A stretch of DNA of 5,022 bases, from IMG/VR virus record IMGVR_UViG_2579778650_000006. One strand, written 5' to 3'. Made by a program: the position numbers and the translations under genes. The notes below the pieces were generated by a model. It made no database searches and had not been told where the DNA came from. It worked only from the letters and a program-made list of their open reading frames with translations. Each line of letters opens with the position of its first letter. The stretch's first letter is position 1. This document shows, in pieces, positions 95 to 549 of the stretch. The DNA comes from a virus. Its lineage: Duplodnaviria > Heunggongvirae > Uroviricota > Caudoviricetes.

Positions 95-511
95 TTACAG
101 ACAAATGGCGATGTAGTTGATCAGTACGCCGTCGAGGATCGCCAGCAGCGCCTGGAGAGTCGGTTGTTGGCATTGAAGTCGTCGGCGCAGAGGAATAAAC
201 AGATGTGTGGTGAGTGTCTGGGCGGGGTAATCCTGACCGCGCTCTTTGATCCACGTTCGCAGGCTATGCAGATTGCCGCTTTGCAGGTAGGTCAGTAATG
301 TTTCTTGCTGATCGCGCCAGCCGTTCTGCACATCAACATTTTCATTACTGAGCAGCATTTTAACTTTGCTGACCTGCACGCCGTTGTCGATCCAGCGTTT
401 GATCTCGCGGATACGGTCAATATCGGCATCGTTGAACAGTCGATGACCGCCGTCTGTCCGTTGCGGTTTCAGCAACCCGTAACGCCTCTGCCACGCGCGT
501 AACGTGACAGG
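95..511 (-). pseudogene. mlrA: 5'-truncated MerR-family transcriptional regulator gene (mlrA/yehV-like). The HTH region from ...PVTLRAWQRRYGLLKPQRTDGGHRLF... onward is retained, but the start codon and first helix are missing.
   Basis: Minus-strand frame encodes a MerR-type HTH signature (RAWQRRYGLLKPQRTDGGHRLFNDADIDRIREIKRW) followed by a coiled-coil-like segment. In-frame upstream sequence is KLAKSISLPLI preceded by TAA at 525-527, with no ATG and no match to a MerR N-terminal helix. The track's 'M' at 475 is a TTG codon that in context reads as Leu. Stop TAA at 95-97. The mlrA assignment is from memory, not a search. Confidence 0.6.
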
Positions 512-549
512 GATTAAGGGTAAACTAATTGATTTTGCAAGTTTTTATT
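505..549. other. Probable prophage-chromosome junction (attL-type), immediately 3' of the integrase gene; contains an IHF-like motif.
   Basis: Homology of the MerR-family frame breaks at ~509-527; the integrase stop is at 550-552. Minus-strand AATCAATTAGTTT (plus 512-524) matches the IHF consensus WATCAANNNNTTR at 12 of 13 positions. The exact core cannot be defined without the other prophage end or an empty site. Confidence 0.45.

Follow-up and report, generated by a model that had tools for sequence, protein, structure and literature searches.

What is left of a MerR-family regulator gene whose reading frame begins where a phage integrase gene ends, and could its product still act? The question is raised by a 5,022-bp stretch of DNA (the window) that is the entire draft contig JICC01000116.1 of assembly GCA_000691025.1, from isolate S6662. 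This typical EPEC O111, a member of the EPEC2 lineage, was isolated from a child in Kenya; its genome was assembled with Velvet, and all nine isolates of the announcement, S6662 among them, were described as stx-negative (PMC4056304). We conclude, with a probability of about 95%, that the window is the attL end of a lambdoid prophage integrated in mlrA (yehV), and that this integration inactivates a regulator of curli and biofilm. The layout of the locus, the identities, the core of the att site and the ends of the IS elements were read from the sequence itself, and comprise the following features.

1-98, minus strand: outer end (IRL, tnpA side) of an IS66-family insertion sequence; terminal repeat GTAAGCGCATCATTTAAACCG... 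read from 98
95-97, minus strand: TAA ending the MlrA frame, from the IS terminal repeat and not a native stop
98-511, minus strand: mlrA remnant, codons 17-154 of 243; BLASTP 138/138 against K-12 MlrA residues 17-154
99-106, no strand: predicted 8-bp target duplication AGACAAAT, by analogy with the 8-bp duplication of the plasmid copy (L003)
492-512, no strand: attL core, 21-bp direct repeat CACGCGCGTAACGTGACAGGG, equal to mlrA codons 17-23 (PVTLRAW)
513-549, no strand: P′ arm of the phage, reaching from the core to the integrase stop; the PhiR5_1 phage record opens with the same arm
550-1836, minus strand: tyrosine integrase, 428 aa; Pfam Arm-DNA-bind_2 (2e-24) and Phage_integrase (5e-18)
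1870-2124, minus strand: excisionase of xisR type, 84 aa; Pfam DUF1233 'putative excisionase' (2e-29), xisR in 12A
2143-4868, minus strand: early-left (b-region) prophage genes, from Pfam and the annotation of the 100%-identical 12A stretch
within that range, minus strand: 44-aa ORF
2281-2523, minus strand: DUF4222 gene (Pfam)
2608-3366, minus strand: 252-aa protein with a DUF551 tail (Pfam)
3363-3878, minus strand: 171-aa ORF, no Pfam match
3880-4365 and 4362-4868, minus strand: two Ead/Ea22-like genes (Pfam and 12A annotation)
4926-5022, no strand: outer end (istB side) of an IS21-family, IS100-like element; 97/97 identical to the RM11911 copy

The mlrA remnant and the attL junction

The frame at the left of the window is, by identity and domain content, orthologous to mlrA and is not an intact member. 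Its identity to the 243-aa K-12 protein starts at PVTLRAW and runs without a mismatch to AICL, and nucleotides 98-517 were matched in 5,423 of 5,426 complete E. coli genomes in a megablast search with 1-549, always under the annotation mlrA. Intact MlrA comprises, in Pfam terms, MerR_1 (residues 4-72), MlrA_helical (81-155) and MlrA_C (162-238). In the window frame the MerR_1 match covers profile positions 16-68 of 69, against 1-68 in K-12 MlrA, and the absent positions 1-15 are the first helix of the helix-turn-helix (HTH). MlrA_helical (PF22270) is present at E = 1.2e-31 over profile positions 1-74 of 75. No Pfam match to MlrA_C (PF22267; K-12 residues 162-238) was obtained in the window, where the frame stops after residue 154; the last 89 codons, all of MlrA_C included, lie outside it. 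A MerR domain still recognisable without its first helix marks what appears to be a gene remnant. The mlrA/yehV identity, which a preliminary description of this DNA had proposed, is thus borne out by the protein identity, by MerR_1 and MlrA_helical, and by the annotations of the 5,423 genomes. Beyond the limits of the window, the order yohO/yehW - mlrA - btsS is seen in strain 12A and in K-12.

Between 550 and 95 the minus strand translates as ...K*KLAKSISLPLIPVTLRAWQRRYGLLKPQ...INYIAICL*, the frame itself opening as ...K*KLAKSISLPLIPVTLRAWQRRYGLL.... An in-frame TAA at 545-547 lies upstream of the remnant, and from there the frame holds no ATG, GTG or TTG until the TTG at 473-475, which is Leu29. 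With MerR_1 beginning at profile position 16 and no canonical start before Leu29, the earlier claim that the frame has lost its N-terminal helix and start codon holds.

Identity to uninterrupted mlrA extends from window position 98 to 511, or to 517 if a 1-nt shift is allowed in a run of G, and then ceases. This alignment, which the preliminary description had called for, places the end of identity at 511-517; the breakpoint lies in the 21-bp repeat. The repeat is common to attL in the window, attB in K-12 (20 of 21 positions) and attR in 12A, and a three-way alignment of the window, K-12 and 12A returns the core CACGCGCGTAACGTGACAGG(G). It also agrees at every position with 238-258 of phage YYZ-2008 (FJ184280.1), where the record bears the label 'direct repeat due to prophage insertion'.

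Immediately beyond the right-hand edge of the 20-bp core, which is perfect, single bases set the att sites apart: attB reads GGATTAAT, attL GGGATTAA and attR GGGTTAAT (window 508-517; L009:18740-18750; L002:1911-1920). These may mark the edge of strand exchange, or may be later mutations.

Past the core, the phage arm stands in place of mlrA codons 1-16, which encode the first HTH helix (MALYTIGEVALLCDIN), and reads ...K*KLAKSISLPLI. The displaced codons are found in the related complete genome of 12A, whose attR consists of a 66-nt 5′ mlrA fragment adjoining btsS, about 50 kb from attL, with the other copy of the repeat next to codons 1-16. An attR in S6662 would be expected to join btsS, mlrA codons 1-23 and the phage arm ...AAATGTTGCGT. 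Lambda-like head and tail genes, a tailed-phage gene set, lie between attL and attR of 12A, and the phage arms flanking the core correspond to the opposite ends of the PhiR5_1 phage record. The complete junction (98-517 plus the phage arm through 549) is carried by 458 of the 5,426 complete E. coli genomes (8.4%). Since 98-517 is matched in 5,423 of these genomes and the arm continues to 549 in 458, the junction is not a chance one.

The adjacent DNA is the int-xis end of a lambdoid prophage. Its integrase is annotated as such in 12A, VT1-Sakai, YYZ-2008, BP-4795 and PhiR5_1, and the stop codon of the gene (550-552) lies 38 bp from the core, in keeping with the proposal that the prophage boundary adjoins the integrase gene end. 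Farther in, the 171-aa ORF is annotated in 12A by PGAP for its 5′ part only, as a frameshifted pseudogene (L001:6603-6781).

Insertion elements at the two ends of the contig

IS ends bound the contig on both sides, IS66-family on the left and IS21-family on the right, each contributing 97-98 nt of multi-copy sequence; it was at these multi-copy elements that the assembler (Velvet) broke the contig. Because this 5-kb contig ends in IS copies on both sides, the prophage in S6662 may be incomplete or rearranged.

On the left, window 1-100 is identical at 100 of 100 positions to a 2,704-bp tnpA-tnpB-tnpC element of plasmid pN96-1 (L003, 895-3598), which is bounded by GTAAGCG...CGCTTAC and by the 8-bp duplication AGTTTATA. 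The window contains one end of such an element, with the first 98-100 nt the same as on the plasmid and with the GTAAGCG terminus and the tnpA start in place (ATG at 13-11 on the minus strand, near the IS66-family terminus). The length of the element and its GTAAGCG termini presumably fit IS679 of EPEC plasmid pB171. On the mlrA sense strand the junction reads ...ATT TGT CT|G TAA GCG..., where K-12 continues CTG GCT TCG (Leu154-Ala-Ser). The IS was thus inserted after the second base of codon 154, and its GTAAGCG end completes Leu154 and then supplies an immediate TAA. The preliminary description had treated the frame end at 95 as a natural gene end; this must be abandoned, as the TAA belongs to the IS66-family terminal repeat. 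A native mlrA stop at 95 was likewise considered and rejected, K-12 reading on past Leu154. A second copy of the predicted target duplication would sit past the other end of the IS, outside the contig, where the partner expected after a simple insertion is mlrA codons 152-243 followed by yohO (ATTTGTCT-GGCTTCGGC...). The sequence shows two cuts in mlrA of S6662: one made within codons 17-23 by site-specific integration of the phage, the other made at codon 154 by transposition of an IS66-family element.

On the right, identity to the 12A prophage ends at 4927, where the IS21-family end begins. In E. coli RM11911 the matching end adjoins istB of an IS100-family element; plain phage mosaicism, entertained as an account of 4928-5022, was rejected, the stretch being an IS21-family terminus. 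The copy lies upstream of the second Ea22-like gene, and the flanks of the window and RM11911 copies are loosely alike (ATAAAG.TAT.C.CA.A before TGTCAACG).

Recurrence of the codon 154 lesion was sought by looking up the exact 126-aa product that it would leave (Leu29 to Leu154, then a stop) in public assemblies, a look-up that detects only IS66-type ends at this position and in this phase. The product is present on a handful of contigs. In two of them (L004 and L006) mlrA breaks off at the identical nucleotide and gives way to GTAAGCGTTAACGGAGTGCC..., which is the end of an ISEc23-family element on its tnpC side; in another (L007) the break, again at that nucleotide, leads into GTAAGCGGCTCGTCAGAACC..., which is the other end of an element of the 2,704-bp kind. 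The shared break point comes after ...CATCGCCATTTGTCT (window 98/99; L004:9271; L006:2819; L007:2423), so that three ends at one nucleotide represent two orientations and two kinds of IS. Between these three backgrounds there are 3-7 SNPs within the remnant (413 nt) and 33-38 when mlrA and int are taken together, which indicates three independent insertions at one nucleotide. All three sit in prophage-split mlrA alleles, a distribution that fits neutral accumulation in a dead gene in IS66-rich lineages.

That mlrA codon 154 is a preferred IS66-family target is a tentative suggestion, to which we give somewhat less than even odds. Sampling bias is the alternative to a true preference, and the two cannot be separated with these data. 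Several results speak against a preference. None of the three IS66-mlrA junctions was found in the 5,426 complete E. coli genomes; in all 5,423 that have mlrA, a probe of 140 nt spanning the site aligned without a break. Had an mlrA free of prophage received this insertion, a 154-aa product would result, and that product was absent from the protein collection. In the JGI metagenome contigs scanned, mlrA joined to GTAAGCG at this site gave 0 matches. No target consensus emerged across 18 insertion sites of the first element (16 flanks from Escherichia sp. MOD1-EC7003, the plasmid copy and the window), which leaves sequence-specific targeting unsupported. If the hot spot is true, it would point to a structural or protein-directed choice of target in a poorly understood IS family, and the one-nucleotide recurrence offers a small, testable lead on that choice.

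Among GTDB representatives the IS end was found only in MOD1-EC7003. At least 17 copies of the same IS66-family end occur in that genome, most of them at contig breaks (L010-L026), and this number indicates a large expansion of the element there.

The best 120 MlrA homologues are mostly full-length orthologues. The few other lesions among them comprise a 215-aa prophage-type product, internal deletions and C-terminal fusions, the last occurring after residue ~165-170, and no lesion in this set bore on codon 154. Public data contain many further damaged mlrA alleles, the proteins P0038, P0008, P0071, P0086, P0115 and P0104 among them. A Shigella dysenteriae form combines a phage-arm-like N-terminus, MGLPLIPVTLR..., with an internal deletion, and truncated forms of 172 and 178 aa are carried by tens of contigs, including some of Shigella sonnei. 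Decay of mlrA appears to be common in pathogenic lineages.

Predicted consequences for MlrA and competing readings

A simple scheme, in a presumed order, accounts for the events at this locus. The phage tyrosine integrase would have recombined attP with a matching 21-bp core in mlrA codons 17-23. This would carry the promoter and ribosome-binding site, along with the start codon and the rest of codons 1-16, to the attR side at the other end of the prophage. The gene from codon 17 on now lies directly behind int, preceded by phage sequence that contains an in-frame stop and no canonical start. Since the remnant is without the first helix of the MerR HTH, its product could not be expected to serve as the csgD activator, and without csgD activation the expression of curli and cellulose is predicted to be lost or reduced. 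Insertion of the IS66-family element at codon 154 would further separate MlrA_C from the remnant. The phenotype of S6662 is a prediction from this anatomy. The loss of MlrA, of csgD activation and of curli that the preliminary description had anticipated has been shown experimentally for insertions of this kind (PMC3874044, PMC5931665). In the first of these reports, 53 of 55 O157:H7 strains had a prophage in the proximal part of mlrA, and such strains were associated with lost biofilm, curli and Congo red binding; of four non-O157 strains whose mlrA was disrupted, two regained curli and Congo red binding when given pUC19::mlrA (PMC3874044). The second describes the prophage as disrupting the DNA-binding motif (PMC5931665).

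Could the split gene nevertheless yield an active protein? RefSeq (PGAP) annotates the corresponding frame of 12A as a 233-aa 'HTH-type transcriptional regulator MlrA', without a pseudogene flag, from an ATT start in the phage arm (window 527-529; L001:3430-3432 in 12A), so that the protein begins ISLPLIPVTLR.... A functional, N-terminally remodelled MlrA from this non-canonical start would also accord with work in O157:H7 in which distal mlrA fragments were expressed by run-off transcription and recombinant distal fragments brought back some affinity for Congo red (PMC5931665). From that partial recovery, a prophage-split mlrA free of an IS is not necessarily a complete null. The same work, however, found neither restoration of biofilm nor an increase in csgD with these fragments (PMC5931665). 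Moreover, ATT is not a normal initiator, an in-frame TAA stands six codons upstream of it, and MerR_1 positions 1-15 are missing; the window frame also stops at codon 154, so a distal fragment made here by run-off transcription would be without the C-terminal domain. We regard a remodelled, functional MlrA as highly improbable. The features recorded at the matched stretches suggest that the label mlrA is generally given even where a prophage occupies the site, and screens based on annotation would miss the disruption.

The other two alternatives accept the prophage junction and concern the insertion elements. Velvet could have created the IS-mlrA junction, the IS21 junction or both as short-read artefacts, so that mlrA would be cut by the prophage only; the window is a whole draft contig with 97-98 nt of multi-copy IS at each end, and the IS66-mlrA junction occurs in no complete E. 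coli genome. Yet the overlap of mlrA with the IS end is just 1-3 nt, and a de Bruijn assembler would need more than that to misjoin them; the terminus is the exact GTAAGCG expected of real transposition, and in Logan assemblies, made independently from other runs, IS66-family termini again follow at the same nucleotide. An assembly error therefore has, in our estimate, very little chance of being correct. Alternatively, the IS66 end may mark an IS-mediated deletion or inversion that removed or relocated the last third of mlrA (its 3′ part), possibly together with yohO and yehW, with the IS21-hit prophage reduced to a degraded remnant. That both contig ends are IS copies speaks for such an event, as do the 16 places at which the closest complete genome resembles some part of the window. 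Direct counter-evidence is lacking, and the argument against it is that simple insertion with an 8-bp duplication is the default of the IS66 family, as seen in the pN96-1 copy. We consider a deletion or inversion unlikely, while giving it appreciably more weight than the two preceding alternatives; it would alter only details of the IS66 lesion. The window as attL of a lambdoid prophage in mlrA is the same under either form of that lesion.

Comparison with known prophages at mlrA

The mlrA prophages closest to that of S6662 are those of 12A (O111:H2), which is 100% identical over window 98-4927, a span that takes in attL, int, xis and the Ea22-like genes, and of O55:H7 strain RM12579, which is 99.9% identical over the same range. 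In 12A the complete order yohO-mlrA′-int...tail genes...′mlrA-btsS can be followed, while the window shows the left junction. In both relatives mlrA runs to its natural stop and the prophage is uninterrupted at 4927, unlike in the window.

The use of mlrA/yehV by lambdoid phages, Stx-converting ones included, had been mentioned in the preliminary description, and phages of the VT1-Sakai/YYZ-2008 type indeed occupy the same site with the same repeat. Stx1 prophages at yehV/mlrA of O157:H7 include Sp15/VT1-Sakai, CP-933V and YYZ-2008, to which BP-4795 may be added as a further phage at this site. The int-xis module of VT1-Sakai, YYZ-2008 and BP-4795 is ~95% nucleotide-identical to that of the window, and in YYZ-2008 both the repeat and the proximal mlrA site are the same. 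Beyond xis, identity to the Stx1 phages falls and turns patchy, as the mosaicism of lambdoid phages would lead one to expect. The hosts differ as well: S6662 is a stx-negative typical EPEC O111, so its prophage is probably not Stx-converting; an stx region would lie outside the window. A further difference from the Stx1 prophages is that the mlrA remnant and the prophage in the window each bear an extra IS.

Occupancy of mlrA by a prophage, with loss of curli and biofilm, is already known from O157:H7 and some non-O157 strains, and our results introduce no new principle. They refine the picture by adding an IS66 truncation and an IS21-family element in the prophage, by coming from an EPEC that is stx-negative, and by pointing to a pitfall of annotation and to a candidate hot spot for IS66. 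The same lesion is hereby documented in a typical EPEC O111 from a fatal case of paediatric diarrhoea, with an IS66-family element removing the C-terminal domain. As to the pitfall, annotation may present a prophage-split mlrA as intact, whether through the ATT start of RefSeq or through a natural-looking stop supplied by an IS, and could thereby mislead predictions of biofilm from genotype.

A further comparison is with the 'active lysogeny' of mlrA in O157:H7 strain PA20, in which precise excision of the prophage regenerates the split gene (Uhlich et al. 2016, as cited in PMC5931665). Excision, spontaneous or induced, is reported there to regenerate mlrA in a minority of cells (PMC5931665). 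In S6662 the IS at codon 154 would remain after the prophage had left, so that mlrA would stay broken, unlike in O157:H7; we infer that inactivation here is irreversible and that excision could not restore the gene. The switch reported for PA20 would, if it ever operated in this EPEC isolate, be locked off.
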